Positions 9,901-23,484 of a DNA stretch of 64,000 bases are shown here, piece after piece (positions within the stretch are counted from its first letter, which is position 1; each line of letters begins with the position of its first letter). The position numbers and the translations under genes were made by a program. The notes beneath the pieces are model-generated. The model had not been told where the DNA came from. It did not search any database and worked only from the letters and a program-made list of their open reading frames with translations. The stretch lies in the IMG/VR virus record IMGVR_UViG_3300037400_006954, one strand, 5' to 3'. This DNA is from an uncultured virus (IMG/VR IMGVR_UViG_3300037400_006954) (taxonomy: Duplodnaviria > Heunggongvirae > Uroviricota > Caudoviricetes).

Positions 9901-9916
9901 GTAAGGCTCCTTTCTT

Positions 9917-9993: not shown

Positions 9994-9994
9994 G

Positions 9995-10070
9995 TGGTAG
10001 GGACGGAGGGATTCGAACCCTCATTGCTGGCTTCGTAGGCCATGAGTCTATCCAGTTAGCATACGCCCCC
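9995..10070 (-). tRNA. tRNA-Arg(ACG)
   Basis: Loop CTACGAA, CCA. Confidence 0.9.
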
Positions 10071-10072
10071 GT

Positions 10073-10151
10073 TGGGTCGCCGTGCAGGATTCGAACCTGC
10101 GGTTTCCTCGGTCACAACGAGGCGTCTTGACCTGGCTCGACTAACGGCAAC
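10073..10151 (-). tRNA. tRNA-His(GTG)
   Basis: Loop TTGTGAC, G-1:C73, CCA. Confidence 0.95.
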
Positions 10152-10161
10152 ACTGAAATCG

Positions 10162-10237
10162 TGGTGGCGACGGGTGGATTCGGACCACCGACCAACGCCT
10201 TATGAAGGCGCTGCACTAACCGCTGTGCTACGTCGCC
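10162..10237 (-). tRNA. tRNA-Met(CAT), elongator-like
   Basis: GGC acceptor start, loop TTCATAA, CCA; T-loop TCCGAAT. Confidence 0.85.
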
Positions 10238-10410
10238 TAAAATCTACCAGCGGTTCTCAGATGCTTTTAGCACATACTGTGCATCAACCGCAGCCACGGC
10301 ATCATAGGCTTTTGGATTCGACGTGCATATATCTCTTTCGAGCATCGCTTGCACCATTCATGCACGAAGTTTGGTTCTGCCTTACACGTTTCCTGCAAGG
10401 TGGAAAGTTA

Positions 10411-10486
10411 TGGTGGGCCGGAATGGGATCGAACCATTACCGTCGGATTTTCAGTCCGCTGTACACACCGTGTATACGACCGGCCC
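10411..10486 (-). tRNA. tRNA-Phe(GAA)
   Basis: Loop CTGAAAA, CCA. Confidence 0.9.
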
Positions 10487-10487
10487 T

Positions 10488-10565
10488 TGGTTGTCGTGGC
10501 TGGACTTGAACCAGCGAAATGCCGGTGTATCAGACCGGTGCGTTAACCAGCTTCGCCACACGACA
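10488..10565 (-). tRNA. tRNA-Ile(GAT)
   Basis: Loop CTGATAC, CCA. Confidence 0.9.
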
Positions 10566-10581
10566 ATGAAGATTGAAAAAT

Positions 10582-10822
10582 TGAGTCGGCCTGCGAGATC
10601 GCCTCGCAGTGCACACGGGTGCGCCGATCGCTAGAGGTGCGGCCCGTACCTAGGATAGTCCGCACTTATGACGCGCCTTAGCATACTGGCTTTCCCAGTC
10701 CTCCGTCGGGCTTCATCCGCCATCCTGGGTAGCCGTTTTCACTGGCATCCTGTGGCGTCTTGTATCCCGCGTGTGCAAGCTCCCGGCCATTTGCTTGGGC
10801 TTGCGGAACGTCTGCCGACTCG
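10582..10822 (-). ncRNA. Unidentified ~240-nt structured RNA
   Basis: Termini pair (GAGUCGGC/GCCGACUC); internal helices GCAAGC/GCUUGC, ACUGG/CCAGU, GUGCGG/CCGCAC, CUGCGAG/CUCGCAG; non-coding gap within the tRNA array. Confidence 0.55.
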
Positions 10823-10828
10823 AAACCG

Positions 10829-11197
10829 CTACTTCTTCCAGGTGACGAGAAAGTCCCAGAGATCGTCGATCGCGTCTATGCAGGCGTCGATGACGTGGAA
10901 CTTGCCGGTGTCGGTGAGCCTCTTCAGGGCCGCGAGGTAGTCCGACTCCTTGCCAGCGCCGTTGAGGCCGAGCGAGATGTGGGCGACGTAGCTTTCGTAT
11001 TTCTGCCCGTCGAACTTGCCCTTGACCTTCAGTACGCGGAAGGCGTACATCCTGTCCTTATTGGTGGATTTCGACTTTACCAGGGCCTTGATCTCCTTGG
11101 CCGCCGCCGACCTCGTGCTCACTACGGCATTGTCCACGTCGTCGAATTTCTTCTCGAGGTACGCGGCGCTGCCGAATACAATTCCTGTCTCTTTCAT
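10829..11197 (-). CDS. Hypothetical protein
   Basis: ORF from MKETG with AAGGA RBS. Confidence 0.7.
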   Translation of the reverse strand: MKETGIVFGSAAYLEKKFDDVDNAVVSTRSAAAKEIKALVKSKSTNKDRMYAFRVLKVKGKFDGQKYESYVAHISLGLNGAGKESDYLAALKRLTDTGKFHVIDACIDAIDDLWDFLVTWKK

Positions 11198-11235
11198 TGA
11201 ATTGTCCTTTTTTGTCTTTAGGTTACAGGTGACAG

Positions 11236-11311
11236 TGGCAGCCCCAACGGGATTCGAACCCATGTTACCCGGCTGAGAACCGGGTGTACTGGACCACTAT
11301 ACGATGAGGCC
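11236..11311 (-). tRNA. tRNA-Glu(CTC)
   Basis: Loop TTCTCAG, CCA. Confidence 0.9.
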
Positions 11312-11314
11312 ATT

Positions 11315-11392
11315 TGGCAGGGGCGAGGGGACTCGAACCCCCAGATTCCGCCTTGAAAGGGCAGTGACTGTAACCAGTTTGTCTACACCCCC
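11315..11392 (-). tRNA. tRNA-Glu(TTC)
   Basis: Loop CTTTCAA, CCA. Confidence 0.9.
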
Positions 11393-11428
11393 TGAAATCG
11401 TTGCTTTCCGTGCTTGTCCATAGCTATA

Positions 11429-11504
11429 TGGTTGGGGATTCAGGGCTCGAACCTGAAACCTTCTGGGTCAGAACCAGATGCTCTACCGATTGCGCTAATC
11501 CCCA
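11429..11504 (-). tRNA. tRNA-Gln(CTG)
   Basis: U1-A72, loop TTCTGAC, CCA. Confidence 0.9.
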
Positions 11505-11507
11505 GTA

Positions 11508-11589
11508 TGGTGCGCGATGAGGGACTCGAACCCCCACGCCGAAGCAGCGGAACCTAAATCCGCCGTGTCTGCCATTTCACCAATCGCGC
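11508..11589 (-). tRNA. tRNA-Leu(TAG)
   Basis: Long variable arm, loop TTTAGGT, CCA. Confidence 0.95.
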
Positions 11590-11622
11590 AGACGTACATA
11601 GTATAGCAAAGAGTTGCCTTAA

Positions 11623-11697
11623 TGGCGGGGTATGGCGGAGTCGAACCGCCCTGAGGAGATCGACAATCTCCCATACTAACCGATGTATGAATACCCC
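11623..11697 (-). tRNA. tRNA-Asp(GTC)
   Basis: Loop TTGTCGA, G73, CCA. Confidence 0.9.
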
Positions 11698-11772
11698 TGG
11701 TTGGGCCGGCGGGAATCGAACCCGCGTAGCCCCGATTAAAAGTCGGGTACATGGCCTCTCTGTCACGGCCCA
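11698..11772 (-). tRNA. tRNA-Lys(TTT)
   Basis: Loop CTTTTAA, CCA; abuts tRNA-Asp with no spacer. Confidence 0.85.
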
Positions 11773-11773
11773 A

Positions 11774-11865
11774 TGGCGGAAGGTACAGGATTTGAACCTG
11801 TGGGGGGATTGCTCCCCCGCCTCCTTAGCAAGGAGGTGCTTTAAGCCAAGCTCAGCCAACCTTCC
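11774..11865 (-). tRNA. tRNA-Ser(GCT)
   Basis: Long variable arm, loop TTGCTAA, CCA. Confidence 0.95.
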
Positions 11866-12614
11866 TACAGTTCGACTATGAAGTTGTGCCTGTATCCCGT
11901 TGTCTCCTTGTACGAGATGCTTTCGTACCCGTACGGATTCCTGACGTACCTGGTGTTGCCGAGCCGCATGTCCATGAAGTCATGGCAGTGCCCGTGTATC
12001 CACAGAGGCACGTCTATTGCGGCTATGTCGCCATGGGCCTTCTCCCCCATGACGTAGAACGCCTCGTTGACCTCGCTGTCCGCGTACTTCGGGTCGAGCA
12101 TCTCTATCCTTGGGGCGTGGTGCGTAACGACCACCGGAATCTCGCCGCGAGCCTTGCACGCGCCGACTTCGTCCTCGATCCACTTCAGGTTCTCCCAGAA
12201 GAGGTAGGTGCAGACATACGTGTCGAATCCGGGTATGTAGTTGTAGTCGTTGAGCGCCCTCCTGATCAGCTCGTTGTGCTGTATGGGCGTCCACATCGGA
12301 GAGCATATGAACGTCACGGTCCTGTCGCCGTCCTGCACCGACTCGACGAAGTTGTCCCTCTTGCAGGGCATCTCCAAGTCGTTGAAGTAGTGCATGGCGG
12401 TGTAGTAGTCGTGGTTCCCCTTTACTGCCACTATCCTCCCGAACTTGCCGCCCACGGCCTCTTCCAGGACCCTCCGTATCTCGTGCCAGTTGTCCCTGGT
12501 TCCCAGGTCGCCGGCCACGACCAGCACGTCCGCGGGCTCAAGGCTTCCGACGTCGAACGACTTAGGAAGCTCTCCGCCCGGGCAGTGCAGGTCGCTTACG
12601 ATGCTTATCTTCAT
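11865..12614 (-). CDS. Calcineurin-like metallophosphoesterase
   Basis: Motifs SDLH, AGD, GNHD, THHAP, HGHCH, NPYGY. Confidence 0.92.
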   Translation of the reverse strand: MKISIVSDLHCPGGELPKSFDVGSLEPADVLVVAGDLGTRDNWHEIRRVLEEAVGGKFGRIVAVKGNHDYYTAMHYFNDLEMPCKRDNFVESVQDGDRTVTFICSPMWTPIQHNELIRRALNDYNYIPGFDTYVCTYLFWENLKWIEDEVGACKARGEIPVVVTHHAPRIEMLDPKYADSEVNEAFYVMGEKAHGDIAAIDVPLWIHGHCHDFMDMRLGNTRYVRNPYGYESISYKETTGYRHNFIVEL

Positions 12615-12615
12615 G

Positions 12616-13797
12616 TCAGTCCTTCTGCTTGAGGAGGTATCTGTTGGACACCGCCTTGAAGCTTACGAACGGGCCGTCGTCGCAGGACTTGAACACAAGT
12701 CCCTCGCGCTCGTGGCCACGTGCGGTCTTACCCTCGGCGAACTTGAGCATCTCGTCCATGGACGTTATCTCGTCGAACACCTTCATGAACTTGTTGACTA
12801 CCGGGACATATGGGATGCCCAGGTCTTCGCACAGGTCCTGCGCGTGGCCTGGCATTAGGAACCACTGGTTCTTTATGTCCCATATCCTGAACACGTGCCA
12901 TTCGAACTCGGTGTACAGGTCGCGGTTGCCGTTGACTCCCGGACCGACCAGCTCTCCCTGGAACGCCAGTTCGGTGTGGCTCATCGCGTTTGCCTTGGCC
13001 AGCTTCTCACGAAGGCCGTACTTCTCGGCTACCTGCCAGGGCACCGGCGTCGCGCCGCTCTCCATCTTTGGCTTGAGCCTGAGATTGCGGGAGCAGACCC
13101 CGAACGGATTTTCCGGGTCCACTTCCGCGGACAGGAACACCGTTACGGAAGAGCCGTCGTTCTTCTCCGTCACCTCGAACGCCCTGCCCTTCATCTTCTC
13201 GAAGTAGTCCCCGAGGTTCTGGATGCGCTCCTCGTCGGTCTTAGGTATGAACTCCGACGGGAACTTGCCCATCGCGTCGGCGGAAACCGGATTGCCTCCC
13301 GACGCGGGCCTGAGGGCTTCGGCCACCTCGTCGTAGTGCTCAACCTTCAGAATCTTGGTGACGTCCGCCCCGACCAGGGGCTCAAGTGTGATGTCCATCC
13401 CCTCGCTCTCAGGGTCGCGCTTCAGGTACACGCCCTTGTCGTCCGACGTTATCCTGTCTGTGATCTCCTTGAACTGGTCTATCGGCATGAGCAGCCCCTG
13501 GGAGATGACTCCGCGGAGCTTGCATGTCTTTATCTTCAGGCCTTCCTTCAGCACCTGCCCGCTCTTCGAGACGAACTTCCTGAGGCACCTCTCCCTGAGG
13601 AACTCGTACCTGGGGTCGTCTGCCGGCAGGTAGCTGTCAATCTCGAAGTAGACGGCCCTGTCCCCGGGCTTGTACTCATCGCGTCCGGTGACTATCTTCC
13701 AGCCCTTGCCCACCATCGTAGCGACGGAGAGCCTGTCGGTATCCGGTATCGGATCGCACGTCGCGATCTCCACGACGCTTGCCAGCTTTCTTGACAT
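12616..13797 (-). CDS. ATP-dependent RNA ligase, DRB0094-type (N-terminal OB domain + nucleotidyltransferase)
   Basis: RKLASV...VYFEIDS...KLRGVISQGL OB domain; PKTDEERIQN, TEKNDGSS (motif I), QGELVGPG, REGLVFK, SFKAVSNRYLLK. Confidence 0.93.
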   Translation of the reverse strand: MSRKLASVVEIATCDPIPDTDRLSVATMVGKGWKIVTGRDEYKPGDRAVYFEIDSYLPADDPRYEFLRERCLRKFVSKSGQVLKEGLKIKTCKLRGVISQGLLMPIDQFKEITDRITSDDKGVYLKRDPESEGMDITLEPLVGADVTKILKVEHYDEVAEALRPASGGNPVSADAMGKFPSEFIPKTDEERIQNLGDYFEKMKGRAFEVTEKNDGSSVTVFLSAEVDPENPFGVCSRNLRLKPKMESGATPVPWQVAEKYGLREKLAKANAMSHTELAFQGELVGPGVNGNRDLYTEFEWHVFRIWDIKNQWFLMPGHAQDLCEDLGIPYVPVVNKFMKVFDEITSMDEMLKFAEGKTARGHEREGLVFKSCDDGPFVSFKAVSNRYLLKQKD

Positions 13798-13824
13798 TTT
13801 GTGTTTCCTTTCTTCTTTAAGTTA

Positions 13825-13898
13825 TGGCTGCGGCAGCTGGATTCGAACCAGCGCACACGACTTCAAGGGACGCCGTGCTACCACTACACCATGCCGCA
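13825..13898 (-). tRNA. tRNA-Gln(TTG), atypical
   Basis: Loop CCTTGAA (C at 33), U-U mismatch in anticodon stem, CCA. Confidence 0.75.
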
Positions 13899-13900
13899 AA

Positions 13901-13977
13901 TGGTGGACCTGGAGGGACTTGAACCCCCGACCAGATGATTATGAGTCATCAGCTCTAACCGACTGAGCTACAGGTCC
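13901..13977 (-). tRNA. tRNA-Ile2(CAT, lysidine type) or Met
   Basis: GGACC acceptor, loop CTCATAA, CCA. Confidence 0.85.
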
Positions 13978-13979
13978 AG

Positions 13980-14068
13980 TGGCGGAGAGTGAGGGACTCG
14001 AACCCCCGTGCCCTTTCGGACAAACGGTTTTCAAGACCGCCCCGGTATGACCACTTCGGTAACTCTCC
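13980..14068 (-). tRNA. tRNA-Ser(TGA)
   Basis: Long variable arm, loop CTTGAAA, CCA. Confidence 0.95.
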
Positions 14069-14074
14069 TTGAAA

Positions 14075-14149
14075 TGGCTGCCTAGGTAGGATTCGAACCT
14101 ACGACCTTGGAGTTAACAGCTCCCTGCACTACCGCTGTGCTACTAGGCA
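14075..14149 (-). tRNA. tRNA-Asn(GTT)
   Basis: Loop CTGTTAA, G73, CCA. Confidence 0.92.
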
Positions 14150-14728
14150 TCAAATCGTAACAAACAAATCGTCGTATTCCTTGGCACGGTCCGCCGCGCC
14201 GTCGGAAACTACGTACCCGCAGGGCTTGGACTCCGGGCACCTGCCCCTGTAGATGCAGTTTGGCACACAGTACTGAACCACTATGGGGTCTACCTTCGCC
14301 ACTGCGTCGAGGATCTCCTGCATGCGCTTCCTGGTCTCCGGGTGCGCCATCCCGCACAGCCTCCTCCGGGCCATGTAGATGAGCTCCAGGGCGTTTACCT
14401 GGCAGTCCAGCGGAACCGAAGTGCCCTGCGGCATCTCGTCCCTTGGAAGCGGGTTGTCGTGCCTGTCGTCCCTCGACGACCCCTGACCCCACGTGACCCC
14501 GAACTTGTGCCGCGTGAAATGCGCCGTCATCCAGTACTTTATGTCCGGCTGGTGTATGTAGTACTCTACCAAAGCCAGCGGGCCGTGCTCTGCCCTGCAC
14601 AAAGCGTGCTTAAACGCGTCGCTGGGCTCCTTGTCCGTAGAGCCCTTCCACATTGTGTTCCTGCACATCCTGAGAGCCCTCTCCCACGAACCTGGGACGA
14701 GCTCAGCCGTTATAGTCTTGTCGCTCAT
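14150..14728 (-). CDS. thyX: FAD-dependent thymidylate synthase-like protein (divergent)
   Basis: AEHGPL, HFTRHK-x7-SSR, NALEL...RRLC, C-terminal CxYRGxCPE. Confidence 0.7.
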   Translation of the reverse strand: MSDKTITAELVPGSWERALRMCRNTMWKGSTDKEPSDAFKHALCRAEHGPLALVEYYIHQPDIKYWMTAHFTRHKFGVTWGQGSSRDDRHDNPLPRDEMPQGTSVPLDCQVNALELIYMARRRLCGMAHPETRKRMQEILDAVAKVDPIVVQYCVPNCIYRGRCPESKPCGYVVSDGAADRAKEYDDLFVTI

Positions 14729-14740
14729 GTCATTCTCCTG

Positions 14741-14817
14741 TGGCGCGTCTGGAGGGACTCGAACCCACAACGAGCGGATTAGAAATCCGCTGGTCTATCC
14801 TGTTGACCTACAGACGC
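14741..14817 (-). tRNA. tRNA-Arg(TCT)
   Basis: Loop TTTCTAA, CCA. Confidence 0.93.
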
Positions 14818-14842
14818 ACGTTTTACATTTCAGTAAATCAAG

Positions 14843-15021
14843 TCCCGATGCCAAACAGAGGCCAACCAGCGGCCTCATGGCAAAGCCCGTCGGGAGCGGG
14901 TATGCTCTTATAGTTTAACGCCGCAAAGAGTCAGTCGTTCAGGCGCCGCCTTGTCCGGTGATCAGGCCGGAAAGGCAGTGAAGGTCACACGGAGGACGAA
15001 GGATCCGTGGTTGGACTCTGC
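14843..15021 (-). ncRNA. Unidentified ~180-nt structured intergenic RNA
   Basis: Helices AGAGUC/GACUCU, CACGGA/UCCGUG, GCCUUUCCGG/CCGGACAAGGC, UCCCGA/UCGGGA, GAGGCC/GGCCUC. Confidence 0.4.
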
Positions 15022-15079
15022 ATTATCCTTGGCCCGGGATGCCCCGGAGTCGCGATCTCGCCATGCAGTGGAAGTAGCG

Positions 15080-15619
15080 TCACTGGTACCGTCTGTCGCT
15101 CTGGATTATGCCGTACTTGTGGAAGTACGCGAGCGGCCTCATCTTCCTTACCTTGCCCGAAGGGTCGTTTGCCCTCGGCACGTAGAACCCCCACTTGTGG
15201 TACTTCTTCCCCTCTAGCAGTAGCGTCCACGCCCCCTCTTTTGGGATGTCCAGGAAGTGCTTCGCGGTGGCTTTCGAGAACCACACCGAGTTCTTCCAGT
15301 TAAGCAGGCAGTGCAGCGAATTGAACATGCCGGCGACGAATATCTTTCTGTTGTTGGACGCCGACGGCTTCTTGTCGGGGTCTATCGGGACCACGTTCCT
15401 GTAGTACCCCTTGAGAACTATGCTCAGCAGGTTGGCGCTGTGGTCGTGGAAGAACCTCCTGTCGTCGGACCTAAGCCAGTGGTGGAACCTTATGCTCCTG
15501 CCGAACAGGATGAACGTGTACCTGACCAGGTACGGGTTCCTTGGGTCGCCGAGCCTCTCGGCCCACCGGACCTGGAACCACTTCCCGAACGGTCTCGTGT
15601 CTGATGAACCTGTGCTCAT
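15080..15619 (-). CDS. Hypothetical phage protein, cupin-like
   Basis: PYLVRY...IRFHHWLRSDDRRFFHDH...IVLKGYY...H...AWTL...WGF. Confidence 0.6.
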   Translation of the reverse strand: MSTGSSDTRPFGKWFQVRWAERLGDPRNPYLVRYTFILFGRSIRFHHWLRSDDRRFFHDHSANLLSIVLKGYYRNVVPIDPDKKPSASNNRKIFVAGMFNSLHCLLNWKNSVWFSKATAKHFLDIPKEGAWTLLLEGKKYHKWGFYVPRANDPSGKVRKMRPLAYFHKYGIIQSDRRYQ

Positions 15620-15637
15620 TGCAACTCCTTTCGTAGA

Positions 15638-15817
15638 TGGTCGGCGTGGCGGGATTCGAACCTCGCGGAGACGTGGCCTACGCCCCCGTGTAGCCAGCGC
15701 GAATTAACGCATCTTAAAGCTATTCGCCATCCTCCCCTTGTTCAGGCACTTGCCGATTGTCAGCTGATCTCGGCGGTGAACCCTCGGGGCGTGCTATCCT
15801 GTTACACCATCACGCCG
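15638..15817 (-). ncRNA. tRNA-like RNA with ~100-nt insertion replacing the anticodon loop
   Basis: Acceptor CGGCGTG/CACGCCG-A-CCA, D-arm GGTGTAACAGGATAGCAC, T-loop TTCGAAT; GCCCC/GGGGC stem encloses a long insert. Confidence 0.7.
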
Positions 15818-15825
15818 TTTGAAAA

Positions 15826-15901
15826 TGGTCAGGCCGGGAGGACTCGAACCTCTCGATCGAGCACCGGCGCCTTAGCTGTCGGCACCGGCTACGGCAGCCT
15901 G
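15826..15901 (-). ncRNA. D-armless tRNA-like RNA
   Basis: Acceptor CAGGCTG/CGGCCTG-A-CCA, T-arm GAGG-TTCGAGT-CCTC, single 8-bp hairpin CCGGTGCC/GGCGCCGG with 9-nt loop; no D stem. Confidence 0.6.
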
Positions 15902-16024
15902 GTCAATTGCACCAGGTCCCCGTCGCTCTCCTTCTCCATGTAGTCCGTGCGGATACGATCGCTTTCCGCCCGTGTTTTAAGGAGATGTGCAAACCCTTAC
16001 ACCTCGGCCCGTTAATAAGATTCG

Positions 16025-16879
16025 CTAGAACGGAAACTCCTGTACCTGCAGTCCGGCTCTTGCAGCCGTATCCGCGGTAAGCGGCTGGCCTATGATTCGC
16101 ATGAGCTCCTCTCGCTGCTCGGGGGTTATCTCTATTGAACGCCCTCCGGGGCATGCCTGGCTTGGAATGTCGGCCGAGGCTCCGGCGGAAACCGGAGAAC
16201 CGGGATCCGCGCGCAAGTCAGTGTCCATGCCCATGCCGGCCGTGCATGCGCTTCCGCCCGCGTCTGGGCTTAGCGCGAAGTCTCCGCACACGTAGCGCGG
16301 CACGGCTTCGAACGGCGCGGCACCGAGATGCCATGGCGGCACGGCGCTGAACGGATTCCTCATGAAGTCCGTATCGTTTCCGATGCGGATTGATATGCCG
16401 TCCCAGAAGTCCGCCCTCTTTGGAACTATGTGGCTCGACGCGTCGCTGAAGAGCTTGTCCGAGTCGTACCTAACGTCACTCATGCTCATCTCTCCGCGCT
16501 TGTACGCTCTCATGGACATCCTGTCGAACACGTTGCCGCCGAACGGAACGTAGATGTGCACCGACCGGTCTAGCCCCACGTATGCACATGCCGCAACCGG
16601 GATCTCGTCATTGCCTCCCGCGCCAAACCACAGCACCGGCACCCCGTTGGACAGCCTGTAGTATCCGGTGATCAGGCCGCTAAGCCCGTCTACGTAGTTT
16701 CCTCCGCCGTCGGGGTCTATTACCCTGTCCCGCCCGAATTTTACGCTTCCCTCCAGGTCATACCTGATGCGTTCCAGGCAGAGTATGTCCTTGATTCCGA
16801 ACTCGTAGCCCTTTATGCTGGTGTCGAGCGTCTGCTCGCTGCACCCCTCCAGGGCAAAAAACCTACTTTCCGATTCCAT
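16025..16879 (-). CDS. Hypothetical protein
   Basis: ORF from MESESR with AAGGAG RBS. Confidence 0.7.
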   Translation of the reverse strand: MESESRFFALEGCSEQTLDTSIKGYEFGIKDILCLERIRYDLEGSVKFGRDRVIDPDGGGNYVDGLSGLITGYYRLSNGVPVLWFGAGGNDEIPVAACAYVGLDRSVHIYVPFGGNVFDRMSMRAYKRGEMSMSDVRYDSDKLFSDASSHIVPKRADFWDGISIRIGNDTDFMRNPFSAVPPWHLGAAPFEAVPRYVCGDFALSPDAGGSACTAGMGMDTDLRADPGSPVSAGASADIPSQACPGGRSIEITPEQREELMRIIGQPLTADTAARAGLQVQEFPF

Positions 16880-16896
16880 TGTTGATTCTCCTTTCA

Positions 16897-16985
16897 TGGT
16901 CGCCGGGGGTGGATTCGAACCACCGACGGTTTCGCAATGAGGGCAGATTTACAGTCTGCTGCAGTCGCCACTGTGCCACCCGGCG
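16897..16985 (-). tRNA. tRNA-Tyr(GTA) with C1-G72
   Basis: Loop CTGTAAA, long variable region, CCA. Confidence 0.9.
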
Positions 16986-16994
16986 TATTTGAAA

Positions 16995-17074
16995 TGGTGG
17001 ATCCGAAGGGAGTCGAACCCTCTGTGTGTCTGCTTGCAAAGCAGATGCCTTTGCCACGCTCGAGCCACGGACCC
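16995..17074 (-). tRNA. tRNA-Ala(TGC)
   Basis: G3-U70, loop TTTGCAA, CCA. Confidence 0.92.
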
Positions 17075-17082
17075 GTTGAAAA

Positions 17083-17158
17083 TGGAGCCTGGTGAGGGAT
17101 TCGAACCCCCGAGATACCTCATTACAAATGAGGCGCAGTGCCGCTGTGCCAACCAGGC
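17083..17158 (-). tRNA. tRNA-Thr(TGT)
   Basis: Loop TTTGTAA, CCA. Confidence 0.92.
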
Positions 17159-17178
17159 TAGTGACAAGCGGAATAGGT

Positions 17179-17248
17179 GAGCGGGGCGTACTGTGGTGGG
17201 GGACGAAGTCCTCCGGTTGTTGTGAGATTATAGGAACGCCCTGTGCTC
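17179..17248 (-). ncRNA. GUUCCUA-stem RNA, copy H (short payload)
   Basis: GAGC-ACA-GGGCG-UUCC-UA ... UA-CGCCC-C-GCUC. Confidence 0.75.
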
Positions 17249-17255
17249 GAAAGAG

Positions 17256-17342
17256 CTGCGCGGGGAGTATGTCTACCTTACCAAGGTGGGCTTCAGGGAT
17301 TTTGGCCCCGAAGTATCCATAATAGGAACTCCCTGTGCGCGG
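17256..17342 (-). ncRNA. GUUCCUA-stem RNA, copy G (hairpin payload)
   Basis: GCGC-ACA-GGGAG-UUCC-UAU ... AUA-CUCCC-C-GCGC. Confidence 0.75.
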
Positions 17343-17351
17343 AAATCGTGT

Positions 17352-17428
17352 TGGTCGGAGCGGAGGGATTTGAACCCCCGACGGTCTGCTCCCAAAGCAG
17401 ATGCACTACCAGGCTGTGCTACGCTCCG
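17352..17428 (-). tRNA. tRNA-Pro(TGG)
   Basis: Loop TTTGGGA, CCA. Confidence 0.95.
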
Positions 17429-17726
17429 ACTGCTTGAGCTCGGCTATTGCGTCTCCAAGCGACTCTATCGCCTTGTTCTGCTCCTTGGTATAGCCGTAGT
17501 CCCCTGACGGGAACGCAAATTCGAACATGCCGCACATGAGGACCAGGTTCACGTCCGAGAGGGACTCCAGGTCCGTGTGGCCTATGCGGTTGATCATCAT
17601 GTAGTGCGAGAGTATCGAGCTCCTCATGCTGGAGCCCCCGTAGGTCAGCGTGACGTGCGTACCCTCGAACACCCTAACCAGGGCCTTCATGCGCCTGATG
17701 ATCGTGTTTCTGAGCTTCTTTGTCAT
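17406..17726 (-). CDS. Hypothetical protein (3' end overlaps tRNA-Pro)
   Basis: 106-aa ORF, AAAGGAG RBS. Confidence 0.6.
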   Translation of the reverse strand: MTKKLRNTIIRRMKALVRVFEGTHVTLTYGGSSMRSSILSHYMMINRIGHTDLESLSDVNLVLMCGMFEFAFPSGDYGYTKEQNKAIESLGDAIAELKQSERSTAW

Positions 17727-17747
17727 GTCGTACTCCTTTCGCTAAGT

Positions 17748-17824
17748 TGGAGCATCAGAACGGACTCGAACCGTCAACCTTCTCCATGGCAAGGAGACGC
17801 TCTGGCCGATTGAGCTACTGACGC
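17748..17824 (-). tRNA. tRNA-Gly(GCC)
   Basis: Loop TTGCCAT, U73, CCA. Confidence 0.93.
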
Positions 17825-17832
17825 GCTGAAGA

Positions 17833-17907
17833 TGGAGCATCCAGCGGGAATCGAACCCGCATCACCAGCTTGGAAGGCTGAGACCCTGACCGTTGGATGA
17901 TGGATGC
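17833..17907 (-). tRNA. tRNA-Gly(TCC)
   Basis: Loop CTTCCAA, U73, CCA. Confidence 0.9.
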
Positions 17908-17915
17908 GGTGAAAT

Positions 17916-17992
17916 TGGTAGGCGATGAGGGACTCGAACCCCCGACCTTGACCGTGTAAAGGTCCTGCTCTGACCGACTGAGCTAACCGCCC
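17916..17992 (-). tRNA. tRNA-Val(TAC)
   Basis: Loop TTTACAC, CCA. Confidence 0.93.
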
Positions 17993-17993
17993 G

Positions 17994-18070
17994 TGGTAGC
18001 GGGGGCAGGATTCGAACCTGCGAATGCTGGCTTATGAGGCCAGTGACGTTGACCACTTGTCTACCCCGCA
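17994..18070 (-). tRNA. tRNA-fMet(CAT), initiator-like
   Basis: 1:72 mismatch, GCGGGG acceptor, loop CTCATAA, CCA. Confidence 0.85.
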
Positions 18071-18209
18071 GTCAGTAAATCGAATAAGCGCGGGATCTTA
18101 CCGCTCCAGGCCTAAGACACCGAACAACCTGGCCTGGCTTTTCTCGCTTTTTCGAAGCGATGCATGGACCGGACCCTGCGGGCGAATGCACAGGCCCGGT
18201 CCGGAGAGC

Positions 18210-20108
18210 CTACGAGAACAGCTTTATCAGCGTGTCCTTCTCGAGCTTCGTGAGGTCAAGCCCCGGCTCGACGACCTTCTCCGGATTCTCCGGATCGACC
18301 GCCTTCTCGGGATCCCACACGGTAAATCCCGCGCGGAGCAGGATCTCCTTGAGCGGGACGAACCCCTCGGCGCGGGCCTTGATGCCCTCGATCACGTTCT
18401 CAGCGTACTTGCCGCCGACCGACACGCGGCCGCGGGCCGTGCCGAGGTCCATGAGCGTGAACCTGTCGTTCAGTATCACCCCGATGGACTTCTCGCCCTG
18501 CCCCTGGAAGTCGACCATGACGTCGAACTTGATCTTGTCGGGGTCTACCATCCTGCCCTTCGGCCAGCTCCTGTCGAACTTGTCGTTCGCGAAGAAGAAC
18601 CGGAACTTGGAGTCGTCGTCGCCGTTGAACTTGTTGAGCTTCACGATTCCGTCGGGGCAGGACTTGGCGATGTACAGCAGCTCCACCGCCTCCGGGTTGG
18701 CATTCGTCATGTCCCCGGAGTACACTACCTTGCTGCCGTCGCCGCTGTAGCCCCTGCCGAAACCATAGTACGCTGCGTTCCAGCCGATCTTGCCTCCGTC
18801 GATGCTGACCATGCTCAGGTCGTAGTCCCTGGTGCCCCATTCGTTGCGCCAGTATACTCCGACGATGTTGTCGCTGGTGAGCCTGAAGGACGTTCCGTAC
18901 GGGAAGTTCCCGACGAAGTTCTTCTCTGACGTGGGAAGGGCTATCTCGTAGTTCTCCGGGAACCTGACCGTGCAGGCCTTGTTCCTGATGGAGTCCACGA
19001 GCGACTCCTCGAACGCGAAGTACAGCTGGGACAGGCGGTCCTGGTCGTACTTGGGGGCATAGCCCTTGCGCACGAACATCTTGCCGTTCCTTATGATGTA
19101 CATCGAGTCCTCGGGCTTCCTGGCCATCCTCGACTTGAGGAGCATCATGATCCTGATCTTGCGCCAGGGATCCAGCTCTGGGAGCCTGTCGCGCACCTCC
19201 GAGACCGTGGCCTTGGAGGAAAGCAGGTTTTCCCAGAACCCCGGCTTCATCGGCCTGTGGTTCTTCGCCGCCAGCCTCCTGAGCTTGTTGATGACCGACG
19301 CCGTTGAGGCCGTCTTCATCGCCAGGAAGATCGGCTTGAACCTCAGGAAGATCCTGGACAGCCTCTCGAGCTGCCTGTCGGTCAGCGAGAGGAGCGGGGA
19401 CTTGGCCTTGCGGCGCTCGTCCTCGAACAGGCTGGTGCCGTACTTTATGTCCTGGAGCGCCTTTCTGCTCTTGATCACCATCGGCGACCCGCTGTACTTG
19501 AAGACCAGCGTCCTGAGCATGCCGAACTCGTCCGCGGGAAGGACCCCGGCCTTGTCGCTCAGGTACACCGTCGCCTCCCTGTTCTTGATCTCGGAGATCA
19601 GGTTGGAGAGGTCGTCCTTTGAAAGCTTCGAACCCTTCTTCTCGTACCAGAAGTCCGTCATGTCCTTCATCGTCCTCTCCTTGAGGGCGATTCCGGACTT
19701 GACGACCTCCATGCACTTCTCCGCAAGCTCGTCCTCAGAAATGGGCTCGAGAACCTGCATCTTCCTGAACGCGTCCGGCATGGGGTCGGAGTTCGGAACG
19801 TAGCCGTTGCCTTCCGGCTCCCTGCCCTCCTCAAGCTCCCCGTACGTCGTGGCGTAGTGGAGCAGCTGGTCCAGGAGCAGCTCCAGCCTGCTCTTGCTGA
19901 CGACGTCCTGCCACTCCTTGTAGAACGTCGCGTTGTGGTTCCTCGTAAGCGTCCTGAGCCACGCCTCGACGGACTTGTTGCAGCAGTCGGGGTGGACGAT
20001 CCAGCCCAGGGGGGCGGACACGGAGTTTACCTCCGAGAAGTCGACCTTCTCCGATGCGTCCGAGACCGGGCCCCGGCGGAAGTAGTCGATGATTGACGCG
20101 CTTGTCAT
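18210..20108 (-). CDS. 632-aa protein: helical N-terminal region + C-terminal TerD-like domain; candidate divergent Ro/TROVE-like RNA-binding protein
   Basis: C-terminal IVGVYW...DYDLS...GWN...YSGDMTNA...ELLYI matches the TerD pattern; N-terminal NATFYK.W...DQLLHYATTYG and helical, basic segments; directly downstream of the RNA array. Confidence 0.6.
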   Translation of the reverse strand: MTSASIIDYFRRGPVSDASEKVDFSEVNSVSAPLGWIVHPDCCNKSVEAWLRTLTRNHNATFYKEWQDVVSKSRLELLLDQLLHYATTYGELEEGREPEGNGYVPNSDPMPDAFRKMQVLEPISEDELAEKCMEVVKSGIALKERTMKDMTDFWYEKKGSKLSKDDLSNLISEIKNREATVYLSDKAGVLPADEFGMLRTLVFKYSGSPMVIKSRKALQDIKYGTSLFEDERRKAKSPLLSLTDRQLERLSRIFLRFKPIFLAMKTASTASVINKLRRLAAKNHRPMKPGFWENLLSSKATVSEVRDRLPELDPWRKIRIMMLLKSRMARKPEDSMYIIRNGKMFVRKGYAPKYDQDRLSQLYFAFEESLVDSIRNKACTVRFPENYEIALPTSEKNFVGNFPYGTSFRLTSDNIVGVYWRNEWGTRDYDLSMVSIDGGKIGWNAAYYGFGRGYSGDGSKVVYSGDMTNANPEAVELLYIAKSCPDGIVKLNKFNGDDDSKFRFFFANDKFDRSWPKGRMVDPDKIKFDVMVDFQGQGEKSIGVILNDRFTLMDLGTARGRVSVGGKYAENVIEGIKARAEGFVPLKEILLRAGFTVWDPEKAVDPENPEKVVEPGLDLTKLEKDTLIKLFS

Positions 20109-20145
20109 TGTTTTTTCTCCTTTTTTGTTGTTGAAGACGTAAAAT

Positions 20146-20202
20146 GCCGCGGGCCGTATGGATTCTTGGTGAAGAAGTTTTCATAGGAACGGCGGATGCG
20201 GC
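20146..20202 (-). ncRNA. GUUCCUA-stem RNA, copy F (short payload)
   Basis: GCCGC-AUCC-GCCG-UUCC-UAUG ... CAUA-CGGC-CC-GCGGC. Confidence 0.75.
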
Positions 20203-20216
20203 GACGTAAAAGGAAA

Positions 20217-20338
20217 TGCGCGGGACGTATAAAGGCGCTCTACCATCTGAGCTACCTAGAGAGGCGAGCCTCCCCGGGGTGGGATTCGAACCCACGACTT
20301 CCTGGTTGCGAGCCATTGATAGGAACGTCCTGTGCGCA
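20217..20338 (-). ncRNA. GUUCCUA-stem RNA, copy E, carrying a circularly permuted tRNA-like domain (YrlA-like)
   Basis: GCGC-ACA-GGACG-UUCC-UAU; T-arm GUGGG-UUCGAAU-CCCAC, then loop-closed acceptor, then D-arm GCUC-AGAUGGUA-GAGC; AUA-CGUCC-C-GCGC. Confidence 0.85.
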
Positions 20339-20343
20339 AAGGG

Positions 20344-20426
20344 AATCGGCGAACGGTAGTATCGGGCCGGGCCTTTCACCCCGGCGTTGTTCTTGTTTGT
20401 CTGATAGGAACCGTATGTGCCGATTT
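20344..20426 (-). ncRNA. GUUCCUA-stem RNA, copy D
   Basis: AAUCGGC-ACAU-ACGG-UUCC-UAUC ... GAUA-CU-ACCGU-UC-GCCGAUU with internal GCCGGG/CCCGGC hairpin. Confidence 0.7.
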
Positions 20427-20435
20427 AAATCGAAC

Positions 20436-20561
20436 CTGCCTGCGGGCCGTATGCAGTGCTCTACCATTGAGCTACGCGGTCCAGCGGCCGCGGCGGGGGT
20501 CGAACCCGCGTCCATTCATGAACAGTGAATTTTTTGCATTAGGAACGGCGTGTGCAGACAG
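20436..20561 (-). ncRNA. GUUCCUA-stem RNA, copy C, carrying a circularly permuted tRNA-like domain (YrlA-like)
   Basis: CUGC-ACAC-GCCG-UUCC-UA; T-arm GCGGG-UUCGACC-CCCGC, then CGCGG/CCGCG closed acceptor, then D-arm GCUC-AAUGGUA-GAGC; UA-CGGC-CC-GCAG. Confidence 0.85.
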
Positions 20562-20575
20562 CTGCTGGAAAATGG

Positions 20576-20690
20576 CGAGGCGACGGGTATCGGTTGGGGA
20601 CGCGGGAGTCGAACCCGCTGCTTCCGGCCCTTCAGGCCGGCGGTCTGCCGGTGACCTAGTCCTCGGGAATTAGGAACCCGATGTGCCTCG
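20576..20690 (-). ncRNA. GUUCCUA-stem RNA, copy B, enclosing a non-permuted tRNA-like cloverleaf (GAA loop)
   Basis: CGAGGC-ACAU-CGGG-UUCC-UA; D-arm GGUC/GACC, arm CCGGC-CUGAAGG-GCCGG, T-arm GCGGG-UUCGACU-CCCGC; AUA-CCCG-UC-GCCUCG. Confidence 0.8.
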
Positions 20691-20707
20691 GTTTAAAGCG
20701 ACTAAAA

Positions 20708-20762
20708 GGCGGGCCGTATGGTTGATTTCCAGTCAAGCGTATGATAGGAACGGCCTGTGCCC
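20708..20762 (-). ncRNA. GUUCCUA-stem RNA, copy A (short payload)
   Basis: GGC-ACA-GGCCG-UUCC-UAU ... AUA-CGGCC-C-GCC. Confidence 0.75.
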
Positions 20763-20925
20763 GTGTAAATCTAGAAGGCTCCTTTCTGCGACACGAAAGG
20801 GTAAACAAACGCAGCTTTTACGGATCGTCTCGGTCAGGAGCCATGGATCCCGAGTGCGGGGGAATCGGAAACCCCGCAAGTTATTGTTTCAACCAAATCC
20901 AGTTTTCAAAGATCAACTGGCAGAT

Positions 20926-20954
20926 ATTATACGAAATCTGCTCCCGATTTGCAA
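20926..20954 (-). promoter_or_regulatory. Sigma70 promoter probably driving the RNA array, the TerD-like gene and the tRNA cluster
   Basis: TTGCAA-N17-TATAAT on the minus strand with AT-rich upstream region. Confidence 0.8.
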
Positions 20955-21002
20955 TGACAAAAAGTAAAATTTTTTACTGTTAAACTTTTTCAAATGTTTT
21001 AA

Positions 21003-21278
21003 CTAGTTTTTTACTGTTTTTTCATTTTCAACCGGAGGCAGTTCCCTTGCCGGACCGTCTCTTGTCACCTGGCGCGGACCGCCGGTGACCTTGTCGACCA
21101 CCGACGCTACCACGCCGTAGCACGTGTCCACGGTGTCCGACACGGTGTCTATGGCGTCCGACGCCAGCTTCTTCGCGACGTCGGGCGTGGTGCACCCCTT
21201 GTCGTACATGCCCTGGGCGTTCATCCCGAGCTTGAACGCGACCGCGCCCACGCCTATGGTTATCAGCATTCCTAGCAT
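21003..21278 (-). CDS. Small protein with N-terminal hydrophobic segment
   Basis: MLGMLITIGVGAVAFKLG. Confidence 0.55.
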   Translation of the reverse strand: MLGMLITIGVGAVAFKLGMNAQGMYDKGCTTPDVAKKLASDAIDTVSDTVDTCYGVVASVVDKVTGGPRQVTRDGPARELPPVENEKTVKN

Positions 21279-21334
21279 TTCCCCGTCCTGTCTTGTGCCG
21301 GGTTCCCGGCGCCCTTGGATCAGATGCACAGAAG

Positions 21335-21718
21335 TCAGAGGTTCTCGTCGACTATCGTGAACACCCTAGAGCCCCTGGAGACGCTGGTGTGCTTCGCGAT
21401 GGTGGCGGGCGGGATGTTGAGCTCGGCGATGATCCCGTCGTAGTCGATCGACTTCTTGTCGGAGCCGTTCTTCCAGGTGACCAGCACGTCGCCGTCTGCG
21501 TTGGCGAGCGTCTCGCTGTCCTGCATGACCCCCATGATCTTGCCCTTGAGCTCGGAGATCTTCAGGTCGATCTCGTCCTTCTGGCGGGTGAGCTCGATGA
21601 TCTGCCTGAGGTCCGCGACCTGGCTCTCCTCCGCCACGCGGGGGGTCTTGAGCCTCGCGACCTTGTACAGCTCCCTGTTGGCCTTCTCGGCCTTGGAGGT
21701 TGTCTGGATGTGTTTCAT
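21335..21718 (-). CDS. Hypothetical protein (coiled coil + DVLVTWK segment, reminiscent of YqaJ-type C-terminal domains)
   Basis: ORF from MKHIQT with AGGAG RBS. Confidence 0.55.
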   Translation of the reverse strand: MKHIQTTSKAEKANRELYKVARLKTPRVAEESQVADLRQIIELTRQKDEIDLKISELKGKIMGVMQDSETLANADGDVLVTWKNGSDKKSIDYDGIIAELNIPPATIAKHTSVSRGSRVFTIVDENL

Positions 21719-22254
21719 TTCAGTTTTCTCCTGTTTGGTGTTGTTTTTGTCCAGTTTAGCCCGTTGTAGCGCCCGCATACCGGTGGAAACTGGATAAAGC
21801 GTGGAAGAACGGACGCCCTGTCGATGCCGTCCAGAATCGCCGGAAAGGCGGTCTGGAGCCTCCAGGAGCGCTCCGCGCGAGCTACTCGATAAATCTATCG
21901 TCCCGAGCCTGGAATCGCTCCTAGGCCCCTTCTCGTGCGAAAAACGCAAGTGAGGGCCTTCAACCCTCCGGGAGACCGACCGTCTCGCTGGTTCTCGTGT
22001 GATGCCGTCACACTATTCCTCTCGGGCCGCTTCGTTACCTAGGCTGGGCACCCTGCTTCATTTGGGCTGTCTTTGTTTGGCAGGTCTACCGGACGACCCG
22101 CCCTGCGCCCATCAGAGCCTAGCGCAGTTTGAGGACCTAGCACCATTTGTCGGCCAGTGACGCCCTATCCTCGTTCGGGGAGCGGAAGGCCTCCGCCGCT
22201 CTCGGAAATCCTGCCTGGGCGCTAAACCGCGCGAAACCCCCTCAGCCTCCCCCA

Positions 22255-22430
22255 GACTGGAGACTTATAAATCCAGTCGATAATAATATATATACTAGAC
22301 GAGTTTTGAAATAAAGTAGCTAAAGCTACTTTACGATATACGCAACTAAAGTTGCTATCTATTTAAAAACTCTTACTAGTATATATAATATATATCTCCG
22401 TACGCGCGCGTGCGTACGCACGACGGCGCG
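22255..22430. other. AT-rich palindromic island, candidate replication origin
   Basis: TATATATACTAG/CTAGTATATATA inverted pair, AAAGTAGC-TAAA-GCTACTTT hairpin and GTACGC..GCGTAC palindrome in an otherwise GC-rich genome. Confidence 0.4.
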
Positions 22431-22455
22431 TCTAACTGGACGTTGGGCTACAAAG

Positions 22456-23484
22456 CTACTTGCCAAATCTACCCTTGACCTCAGACATGGTCCAGTCAGT
22501 CCTGACCTTCCCCCAGTCGGACGCGTCTATGGGCTCCGTGATCCCAGGTACGGACCCGAGCCCGTACCTGTCGAACATAGCCCTGCGCTTCAGCACTACG
22601 GGCTTCCTGCTGACCCTCAGCCCCTCCTCCCAGTCCGGGTCGGTGGGCCTCCTGTACCAGTTCGGAACGGCTGGGTCCATCAGCTTCCTGAGGTCAGTGA
22701 GTCCCCTCAGCAGGACGCTGAACCCTGCGTGGGCCAGTCTCCTGGACACTGTGCCGAACCACTCGGTGGGCTTCCTGTGGAACTTGCTCTTGCGCCTGGC
22801 CCTCCTCCTGTTCTTCAGGTCGTCGCTCCTGGCGGCCCTGTAGAACCTGCTCCGGCACTCCCTGAGGATCCCGGAGAGGCACTCAAGCCCTGACCAGGGG
22901 TCCCTGGAGGCGGCCTTGGCTACCCTGGACCGTATCGCGTCGCAGTGGCCGGCTATGTCCAGCAGCACCTGCGTGGACATGTTCCGCATCCTGACCTTTA
23001 TGGACTGCAGAAGCTCCTTTTTGTCAGATTTGACCGTATTCAGCGCGTCTTCCTGCACTTTTCTGGTTATCTCCGCGGACCTCTCGTCCATCCACGACCT
23101 CGGCGGAAAGTCGCCTGACCTCCCGGAGCGGTCTATGGCGTCGCACGTTCCGGCGACCACCGCCCTGAGTATCCTGTTGCACAGGTACCTCCTGCCGACG
23201 CCGAGGTACGCAAGCTCCTCGTATCCGACGTGGAGCACGTCCGTGAACAGTATGTCCGACATCAGGAAGCACTTGACGTAGCAGGACGAAAAGCCCCTGC
23301 GCTCCTCCTTCGGGCAGCCGCAGGGGTACCTGTCCCGGACCAGCTTCCTTACTTTTTCGGCAGACAGCCCGAGCCTTCCGGCCAGAAGCTTCATGCCGTC
23401 CTTCTGGGACATCTTGGAGTCTATCCTCCTGAAGTCCCTCATTGGAACGATTCCGTCTATTCCGTCTATTCCGTCTATCTCCAT
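22456..23484 (-). CDS. Hypothetical basic protein next to the candidate origin
   Basis: 342-aa Arg/Lys-rich ORF. Confidence 0.65.
   Translation of the reverse strand: MEIDGIDGIDGIVPMRDFRRIDSKMSQKDGMKLLAGRLGLSAEKVRKLVRDRYPCGCPKEERRGFSSCYVKCFLMSDILFTDVLHVGYEELAYLGVGRRYLCNRILRAVVAGTCDAIDRSGRSGDFPPRSWMDERSAEITRKVQEDALNTVKSDKKELLQSIKVRMRNMSTQVLLDIAGHCDAIRSRVAKAASRDPWSGLECLSGILRECRSRFYRAARSDDLKNRRRARRKSKFHRKPTEWFGTVSRRLAHAGFSVLLRGLTDLRKLMDPAVPNWYRRPTDPDWEEGLRVSRKPVVLKRRAMFDRYGLGSVPGITEPIDASDWGKVRTDWTMSEVKGRFGK

Follow-up and report, generated by a model that had tools for sequence, protein, structure and literature searches.

Handle RNAs between the tRNA genes of large phages, candidate trans-acting partners of an unannotated 632-residue protein family

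What occupies the narrow spaces between the transfer RNA (tRNA) genes of large phages? The question is raised by a stretch of 64,000 nucleotides (nt) from an uncultured virus of the Caudoviricetes (IMG/VR record IMGVR_UViG_3300037400_006954; hereafter the window), in which 28 tRNA genes are found between 9397 and 20665 (ARAGORN) and the space between tRNA-Pro and tRNA-Thr holds two units of a structured RNA motif, the handle RNA. Six further units form an array upstream of an open reading frame (ORF) for a 632-amino-acid (632-aa) protein. We consider it probable that the two units, U7 and U8, encode small RNAs of a family not described so far, which are released by tRNA processing and act in trans as partners of the 632-aa protein, in a design resembling that of the Y RNAs but built around a non-homologous protein.

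Two structured units in an inter-tRNA spacer

The features of the spacer and its borders are as follows.

17352-17428, minus strand: tRNA-Pro(UGG) (ARAGORN; Rfam tRNA model 63.6 bits)
17256-17342, minus strand: handle RNA unit U7, 87 nt (covariance model 36.5 bits, E 4.4e-7; outside the training set)
17177-17250, minus strand: handle RNA unit U8, 74 nt (covariance model 40.5 bits, E 4e-8; in the training set)
17083-17158, minus strand: tRNA-Thr(UGU) (ARAGORN; Rfam tRNA model 54.4 bits)

Read on the minus strand, U7 has the layout GCGC-ACA-GGGAG-UUCCUAU...AUA-CUCCC-C-GCGC and U8 the layout GAGC-ACA-GGGCG-UUCCUAU...GUA-CGCCC-C-GCUC. Each is closed by an outer stem (GCGC/GCGC in U7, GAGC/GCUC in U8), continues through an ACA/C internal loop into an inner stem (GGGAG/CUCCC and GGGCG/CGCCC, respectively) and opens into a core, UUCC-UAU...AUA in U7 and UUCC-UAU...GUA in U8, which carries the apical module. 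This module consists of two hairpins in U7, one with the 7-nt loop UUGGUAA, and of a single hairpin with a UUCG loop in U8. The initial annotation had reported here two copies with these compensatory inner stems and an ACA/GUUCCUA motif, and its coordinates, stems and motifs are all correct; of the sizes that it gave, ~87 nt holds for U7, and the ~70 nt of the second unit becomes 74 nt. Its placement of the pair also stands: the units lie between tRNA-Pro and tRNA-Thr, downstream of the 632-aa ORF (18210-20108), at a measured ~2.8 kb (against its ~3 kb) from the six-unit array at 20145-20764. tRNA-Pro and U7 are 9 nt apart, U7 and U8 5 nt, and U8 and tRNA-Thr 18 nt; no tRNA call by ARAGORN or the Rfam tRNA model (RF00005) overlaps 17177-17342.

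Both units carry all the letters of the handle family, namely the closing C-G, the A-N-A/C loop, the G-C-closed helix of 5 base pairs (bp), the UUCC bulge and the U-A pair. Both are recognized as members by the covariance model R1, on the strand of the partner gene; this model was built from 24 short units, among them U1, U6 and U8 of the window, with U2-U5 and U7 outside the training set. The handle is the minimum free energy (MFE) structure of U7 (z -3.39) and of U8 (z -3.22), and 1 of 200 shuffles folds equally well. An unfiltered search of both strands of the 64 kb with the model returned 12 matches at E ≤ 10, eight of which are the eight units (E 1.4e-9 to 4e-3) and four of which have E ≥ 0.98, leaving no unit beyond the eight in the window. 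The sequence GTTCCTAT occurs six times in the 64-kb window, always on the minus strand, against 1.16 expected (0 of 100 shuffles reach six). Chance is excluded for the window's units because of this excess, the model matches and the MFE folding taken together.

The structure is shared far beyond the window. An alignment made by the model from 101 distinct units, of the window and 37 other loci, gives the consensus 5'-NNNRGC / A-N-A / RRNNG / UUCC / UA(U) ... apical module ... UA / CNNYY / C / GCYNNN-3'. C6, A7, U16, C17, C18, U19, C161 and G162 are present in all 101 units, U15 and A155 in 100, G14 and C156 in 99 and A9 in 97. In the 24-unit seed alignment both sides change in 10 of 13 pairs and 94.2% of cells are paired, a percentage that is partly circular, as the seed units were chosen by a scanner requiring pairing; the covariation score is 0.721 against 0.195±0.023, with 0 of 500 shuffles reaching it and slid controls at or below 0.174. 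The alignment of 101 units is fitted to the model and thus biased toward its structure, and in it 92.5% of cells are paired, double-change cells number 364 against 115±12, the covariation score is 0.664 against 0.192 (slid controls ≤0.156) and both sides change in 4 of 5 inner and 5 of 6 outer pairs. The two outermost pairs of the inner helix (columns 10-11 with 159-160) always have the purine on the 5' and the pyrimidine on the 3' side throughout the 101 units, a constraint on orientation that goes beyond pairing, and the G-U pairs that are present are compatible with the given strand only. The invariant unpaired letters and the strand bias played no part in the selection. Above this base the apical modules vary from a hairpin through an anticodon-arm-like hairpin to a whole or permuted tRNA-like domain. 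The handle RNA is a strand-specific, covarying RNA structure with a near-invariant platform under an exchangeable module.

The remaining units of the window, the promoter-like site ahead of them and the ORF that follows them are all on the minus strand.

20926-20954, minus strand: sigma-70-like promoter TTGCAA-17-TATAAT, upstream of the six-unit array (consensus match only)
20705-20764, minus strand: handle unit U1, short hairpin module (covariance model 45.9 bits; in the training set)
20576-20690, minus strand: handle unit U2, whole cloverleaf as apical module (21.6 bits, E 0.004)
20438-20559, minus strand: handle unit U3, permuted tRNA-like domain of T-arm, hairpin and D-arm (27.6 bits)
20345-20424, minus strand: handle unit U4, hairpin module (35.8 bits)
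20216-20339, minus strand: handle unit U5, permuted tRNA-like domain of T-arm, hairpin and D-arm (36.4 bits)
20145-20203, minus strand: handle unit U6, gene-proximal, AUC bulge in place of ACA (40.6 bits; in the training set)
18210-20108, minus strand: 632-aa ORF (P0001), presumed protein partner, with a helical N-terminal part and a modelled TerD-like β-sandwich at residues ~409-576

The insert of U2 is the sole unit insert called a tRNA, as tRNA-Phe(GAA) at 20592-20665 (ARAGORN; 47.3 bits). In the Rfam alignment two of its acceptor pairs are mismatched, and another tRNA-Phe(GAA) is located at 10411-10486; the called element is probably a tRNA-like module rather than a functional tRNA. A second promoter-like site, at 20769-20741, overlaps the core of U1 and was set aside as probably spurious. 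On the other side of tRNA-Pro, between it and tRNA-Gly, is a 106-aa ORF without a family match (17406-17726, minus strand), the 3' end of which overlaps tRNA-Pro by 23 nt.

A protein family and tRNA arrays as companions of the handle RNA

At least one unit is present in 26 of the 28 IMG/VR viral loci that we collected for encoding a homologue of the 632-aa protein (the first search covered 25 sources, then duplicates too), and all 64 model matches at E ≤ 1 in the 25 sources are on the strand of the gene. L006 and L025 yielded no unit even in an unfiltered search; in L006 a sigma-70-like promoter is found directly before the homologue gene in place of a unit. An independent set of contigs from metagenome-assembled genomes (MAGs; binned as Fibrobacter, Bacteroidales and others) has a unit in 34 of 38 loci, with 43 of 43 matches on the gene strand. 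Three sequenced phages encode distant homologues with 25-29% protein identity (S-CRM01 g174, S-CBWM1 gp22 and Phass-1). Units are present in each of them and show a small deviation in the core, GUUCCUU; they lie at L029 5348-5800 and 7660-7713 in S-CRM01 and at L030 3382-3438 and 5851-5905 in S-CBWM1. In the cyanophage isolates S-CRM01 and S-CBWM1 the homologue gene lies inside the tRNA array.

Some of these loci have features of their own. Phass-1 (OQ749652.1; L031 8984-9450) displays six tandem units ~1.2 kb downstream of the homologue gene, which overlap an annotated hypothetical coding sequence, WIC39680.1 (locus 8992-9291), that may be a mis-call. S-CBWM1 (L030 8117-8293) has two features annotated as "tRNA-pseudo" after gp22 and gp23, which lack a handle model match and might be tRNA-like modules of another kind. 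A 170-kb contig binned to a Methanobacterium MAG (L166) encodes a homologue with two upstream units and may stem from an archaeal virus or from a phage that was binned wrongly.

The association also appears when the search starts from the RNA. Viral contigs scanned with a permissive pattern yielded at least 118 stretches, most of them chance matches; of the 80 that were searched with the model, eight are positive. A tblastn search over all of these stretches found the protein in at least six, and those six are all among the eight model-positives. Seven of the eight records hold the gene, the seventh (G001) at a distance of 86 kb, and the eighth is a fragment judged 6% complete. No other protein-coding neighbor is conserved: the 632-aa ORF has matches in 36 of 36 loci and any other ORF of the window in at most one. 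A DNA search of INPHARED returned tRNA matches only. The handle RNA and the 632-aa family thus show near-obligate co-occurrence, and this is the one basis on which we link the units to the protein.

These data bear on a further reading, in which the units would be tRNA genes in decay, or a selfish element that spreads in tRNA arrays, devoid of RNA function. Their location in such arrays would fit, and the core G-UUC is reminiscent of a T-loop. However, compensatory changes keep both helices intact across phages whose proteins are 25-40% identical, stem sequences differ in almost every copy, the copies are not DNA repeats of one another, and the adherence to the gene strand, across both the viral and the MAG sets, is complete; we regard this reading as scarcely credible.

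The protein itself belongs to a large unannotated family. It has 797 relatives at E ≤ 1e-3 among 8000 candidates scored, drawn from metagenomic contigs of up to 415 kb, and the family comprises 1260 cluster representatives at 50% identity, 742 of them with E ≤ 1e-30. Sequence searches of Pfam (E ≤ 0.01), NCBIfam and PDB gave no match to it, and PHROGs a single weak one, to a family of unknown function (E 0.024); its matches in the ESM Atlas are unnamed viral clusters only. The AlphaFold model (predicted local distance difference test score, pLDDT, 83.4) has mainly helical ~400 residues followed by a β-sandwich at ~409-576. The latter superposes on the TerD structures 2qz7_B (VIA-align Z 9.1, root-mean-square deviation 3.5 A, 134 residues) and 2kxt (Z 8.3, 137 residues), and matches 3ibz in Foldseek with probability 1.00 and a template modelling (TM) score of 0.51 by target. 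In this model, residues ~409-576 have the TerD fold; the protein lacks a sequence match to the TerD family of Pfam (PF02342, E ≤ 0.01) and a ter operon context. The N-terminal ~400 residues modelled alone reach a pLDDT of 79.5, and neither they (residues 1-400) nor the whole model give a convincing match for this part, with nothing at E ≤ 1e-3 in Foldseek and a best match of Z 7.7 to ribosomal protein uL29 that covers residues 297-376 only. The top Foldseek rows for the whole model, clostridial neurotoxin chains, have TM scores below 0.1 and were discarded as noise. A structural neighbor is the uncharacterized bacterial MXAN_6230/SCO0854 RING family (TM 0.70 by query, 0.47 by target).

The units are not confined to the vicinity of the gene. 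Whole records contain four units in G001, six in G003 (415 kb, complete), seven in G004 (424 kb, complete), six in G005 (501 kb) and three in S-CRM01, and those of G003, G004 and G005 are scattered across distances of up to hundreds of kb and occur on both strands. Of the 14 dispersed units examined, 11 lie within 400 nt of a tRNA gene of the same strand and three do not. Five units are flanked on both sides within 0-7 nt by tRNA genes (L152 1467-1529 and 9246-9316, L155 2899-2970, L048 641-703 and L005 5983-6113). The combinations include tRNA-Asp/unit/tRNA-Asp (gaps of 1 and 5 nt), tRNA-Gln/unit/tRNA-Ala in G001 (0 and 5 nt), tRNA-Met/unit/tRNA-Leu in L005 (0 and 4 nt) and tRNA-Pro/unit/tRNA-Thr in both G003 (6 and 1 nt) and G004 (7 and 0 nt), whose proteins are ~38-41% identical to that of the window. 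The order tRNA-Pro, unit, tRNA-Thr thus recurs in related phages, which is the conservation of position that the initial annotation had proposed to look for. With tRNAs 0-7 nt away on both sides, such a unit would become a separate small RNA once RNase P and the tRNA 3' end-processing enzymes had cut.

Much of this bears on the view that the handle is solely a cis-acting translational operator, by which the protein represses its own messenger RNA and perhaps a small regulon, with the copies among tRNAs being operators elsewhere or spare sites. Such an operator would explain why most loci have a unit that stops 17-60 nt short of the start codon (36 nt from the ATG for U6; likewise in L013, L020, L023, L010 and others, and in the MAG loci, at positions 3820-4007), and the atypical AUC bulge of U6, which has a C where only 3 of 101 units have one, could be that of a weakened operator. 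Against it, U7 and U8 precede a tRNA and not an ORF, the 11 dispersed units among tRNA genes include several that fill an entire inter-tRNA spacer, and arrays of 6-10 tandem units with tRNA-like modules, ten in L002, precede one gene. Moreover, units follow the gene in L007 (5799-5856), L029 (7660-7713), L164 and L158-L161, and in G001 the units are separated by ~86 kb from the gene, whose upstream 1.5 kb contain none. We therefore consider an operator alone unlikely, in agreement with the initial annotation, which had argued from the distance of U7 and U8 against a role restricted to autoregulation in the 5' untranslated region and now finds comparative support in the recurrent dispersal of G001 and G003-G005. 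An added autoregulatory role in cis of the proximal copy is possible and would be compatible with a trans-acting RNA, as the leader copy would then mimic the trans ligand, similar to the feedback control of ribosomal proteins.

The tight interleaving with tRNA genes could also be read as a sign that the units serve the processing or stability of polycistronic tRNA transcripts (as RNase punctuation or 3'-end protectors), independently of the 632-aa protein, with which they would be found through shared residence in tRNA islands; closed stems would indeed block exonucleases. Yet L008, L013, L016, L022, L027, L028, L098, L100 and L107 have units without any tRNA in their flanks, still beside the gene and on its strand, and the 16 near-invariant unpaired or closing nucleotides, together with the oriented purine-pyrimidine pairs, look like a specific binding platform. 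This makes a pure processing element a rather improbable explanation. The further proposal of the initial annotation, that U7 and U8 are trans-acting RNAs released by tRNA processing, gains comparative support from the 11 of 14 dispersed units near tRNA genes and from the flanks of 0-7 nt.

A proposed route from tRNA transcript to RNA-protein particle

From the structure of the units, their conservation and their co-occurrence with the gene and with tRNA arrays, we infer release, binding and function along the following lines. The units would be co-transcribed with the tRNA array, with which the promoter-like site at 20954-20926 and the lack of any minus-strand terminator-like site between it and 16500 are consistent. 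RNase P and the 3' end-processing nucleases that trim the neighboring tRNAs would free the units, and their paired ends would stabilize the released RNA. The 632-aa protein, encoded just after the six-unit array, would then bind in trans the invariant platform, formed by a C-G pair followed by the A-N-A bulge opposite a single C and, after the covarying 5-bp helix, by G-UUCC-UA on the 5' and UA-C on the 3' side. The apical modules would give each particle its specificity.

Several observations weigh against this route, in addition to the partial circularity of the pairing percentages and the fitted alignment described above. Six of the 66 homologue loci have no unit within ~4 kb (viral L006 and L025; MAG L168 and L192-L194), and the typical leader position of the gene-proximal unit fits a cis-acting element. 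The sequence searches reveal no recognizable RNA-binding domain in the protein, and we know of no RNA or nucleic-acid role for the TerD family. U7 and U8 are separated by merely 5 nt, and tandem arrays would need a further endonuclease beyond tRNA processing. Contigs from RNA libraries are thin over 17177-17342 and give neither RNA ends nor levels, and we draw no conclusion on expression from them. Metatranscriptome contigs from three runs are 90-99% identical to parts of the 632-aa gene and to 20222-20391, where DNA carry-over is possible.

The modules may point to tRNA mimicry even in short units. Hairpins of 5 bp whose 7-nt loop reads YU-NNN-R-N are present in 29 of 110 distinct scanner-found units, against 11.4±3.4 in shuffled inserts (maximum 22 in 200 shuffles); 11 of the 29 are T-arms of tRNA-like inserts and the others are anticodon-arm-like loops, mostly YUGNNAA. 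The units of the Pro-Thr spacers display such loops, UUGGUAA in U7 and in G003 (L152 9246-9316) and UUGUUAA in G004 (L155 2899-2970). We tentatively raise the possibility, to which we assign a low probability, that the 632-aa protein and the handle RNAs form a new kind of phage ribonucleoprotein displaying tRNA mimics, in which a constant stem held by the protein would present anticodon-arm-like hairpins and whole or permuted tRNA-like bodies interchangeably. Such particles would decoy or titrate host nucleases or modifying enzymes that target tRNAs, or steer the repair enzymes encoded nearby, RNA ligase and phosphatase, to damaged tRNAs. It would then be an anti-defense arm of tRNA islands, convergent with the Ro60-Y RNA particle and built on an unrelated protein.

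The handle RNA and the 632-aa protein appear to belong to a larger system of RNA and protein in large phages that is as yet undescribed. The literature searched contains no account of the motif or the protein, and the core motif has no match in six supplementary files of a catalogue of 10,006 candidate viral RNAs (PMC10690425), the remaining three files of which may list it unnamed. The phage non-coding RNA array of the Minerva preprint goes, according to the available text, with a reverse transcriptase and was rejected as a different system. Islands of tRNA genes are frequent in large phages, and the DNA between these genes, usually ignored, contains a conserved structured RNA that accompanies a protein family of >1000 sequence clusters, unannotated and found in huge phages of the rumen and gut as well as in cultured cyanophages. 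If the proposal is true, it would provide a testable function for many unannotated phage genes and a new player in the contest between phage and host defenses over tRNAs; because S-CRM01 and S-CBWM1 are isolates with known hosts (Synechococcus LC16 and CBW1002, respectively), the idea is directly testable at the bench. Of the sampled words of 16800-21000 in the window, 95% are found in one bovine-gut DNA run and part of them in ~20 other gut runs, and relatives with 90-95% identity are present in contigs of rumen metatranscriptomes.

The handle RNA among known RNA-protein systems

In autoregulatory messenger RNAs whose leader is bound by the encoded protein, for instance at ribosomal-protein leaders and at the gene 32 and regA operators of phage T4, the leader site mimics the protein's main RNA target. 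The handle resembles them in that the partner gene has a copy in its 5' leader at most loci; it differs in its many solitary copies among tRNA genes, at distances of up to hundreds of kb, and in its tRNA-like cargo. CRISPR arrays and their Cas6-type processing similarly combine a tandem array beside a protein gene with a constant structured handle and a variable part per unit, but the variable part of the handle RNA lies inside the stem-loop and not between repeats, and its stems covary instead of being identical; the Pfam matches of the 58 ORFs of the window include no cas gene family. The tRNA punctuation model of mitochondria and mascRNA offer the precedent of a non-tRNA RNA directly flanked by tRNA structures, with ends set by RNase P and 3' processing. 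Here, in contrast, the piece set free would be a conserved structured RNA with a presumed protein partner of its own. On the protein side, residues ~409-576 share their modelled fold with the TerD proteins (2qz7, 2kxt, 3ibz), from which the 632-aa protein differs by an additional N-terminal part of 400 residues without a match.

The closest parallel is with the YrlA class of Y RNAs and their partner Ro60. Were the units true Y RNAs binding a Ro60/Rsr protein of host or phage, the 632-aa ORF would be a bystander. In favor of this, the permuted tRNA-like modules of U3, U5 and their relatives match the Rfam model YrlA (RF02553) below threshold, at 31-40 bits: U3 scores 34.9 bits and U5 30.8 bits, and long units of L001, L002 and L004 33.8-40.4 bits, two of them spanning the whole model. 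YrlA-like RNAs have been described next to Ro60 in >250 bacteria and phages, as the available text of Chen et al. 2014 (PMC4201824) has it, and the same text gives GNCGAAN0-1G in bacteria and GGUCCGA in vertebrates as the Ro60-binding stem sequence. However, neither motif is present in any of the eight units of the window, nothing reaches the gathering score of 69, and no TROVE domain is found in the 58 ORFs. U7 and U8 give no YrlA match at E ≤ 10, and they and most other units lack a tRNA-like module. At the gathering score, tRNA is the only family of Rfam 15 matched in the window (cmscan of 17000-21000 at E ≤ 10 and of 8000-23000 at E ≤ 1), as it is above threshold in L001, L002, L004 and L005. 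The conserved neighbor is the 632-aa family and not Ro60, to which the protein has no sequence or profile match in Pfam, NCBIfam or PDB; the Ro60 chain 9nep_A, considered and rejected as a homologue, appears only at Foldseek rank 46 (E 0.39, probability 0.14). Because the Ro60 motifs and a TROVE protein are absent and the thresholds are not reached, the handle RNA is not a Y RNA by membership, and we judge a true Y RNA very unlikely.

The likeness is one of design. In both systems the two ends of a small RNA pair to give a conserved stem with a bulge, on top of which sits an exchangeable module, sometimes a permuted tRNA-like domain; several paralogues lie next to the partner gene with RNA-repair genes nearby. 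The two differ in that the partner of the handle is not a TROVE protein, that the Ro60 motif is absent and the YrlA scores are about half the gathering threshold, that most handle units, including U7 and U8, carry plain hairpins, and that they are interleaved with tRNA genes and form arrays of up to ten. The tRNA region of the window encodes an RNA ligase with the PHA02142 OB-fold (12616-13797, minus strand) and a calcineurin-like metallophosphatase (11865-12614, minus strand), and in the same region a protein with the HAD_SAK_2 "Swiss Army Knife" RNA-repair domain (5583-6242, minus strand) and an AAA ATPase (7135-8307, minus strand), which together look like an RNA/tRNA repair set. The parallel with Ro60 and Y RNAs is strengthened by the sub-threshold YrlA matches together with the nearby ligase, metallophosphatase and HAD_SAK_2 domain. 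If the handle RNAs and the 632-aa protein do form a particle, they would constitute a second, independently evolved Y-RNA-like system, with the stem as its handle and tRNA-like structures as its cargo.

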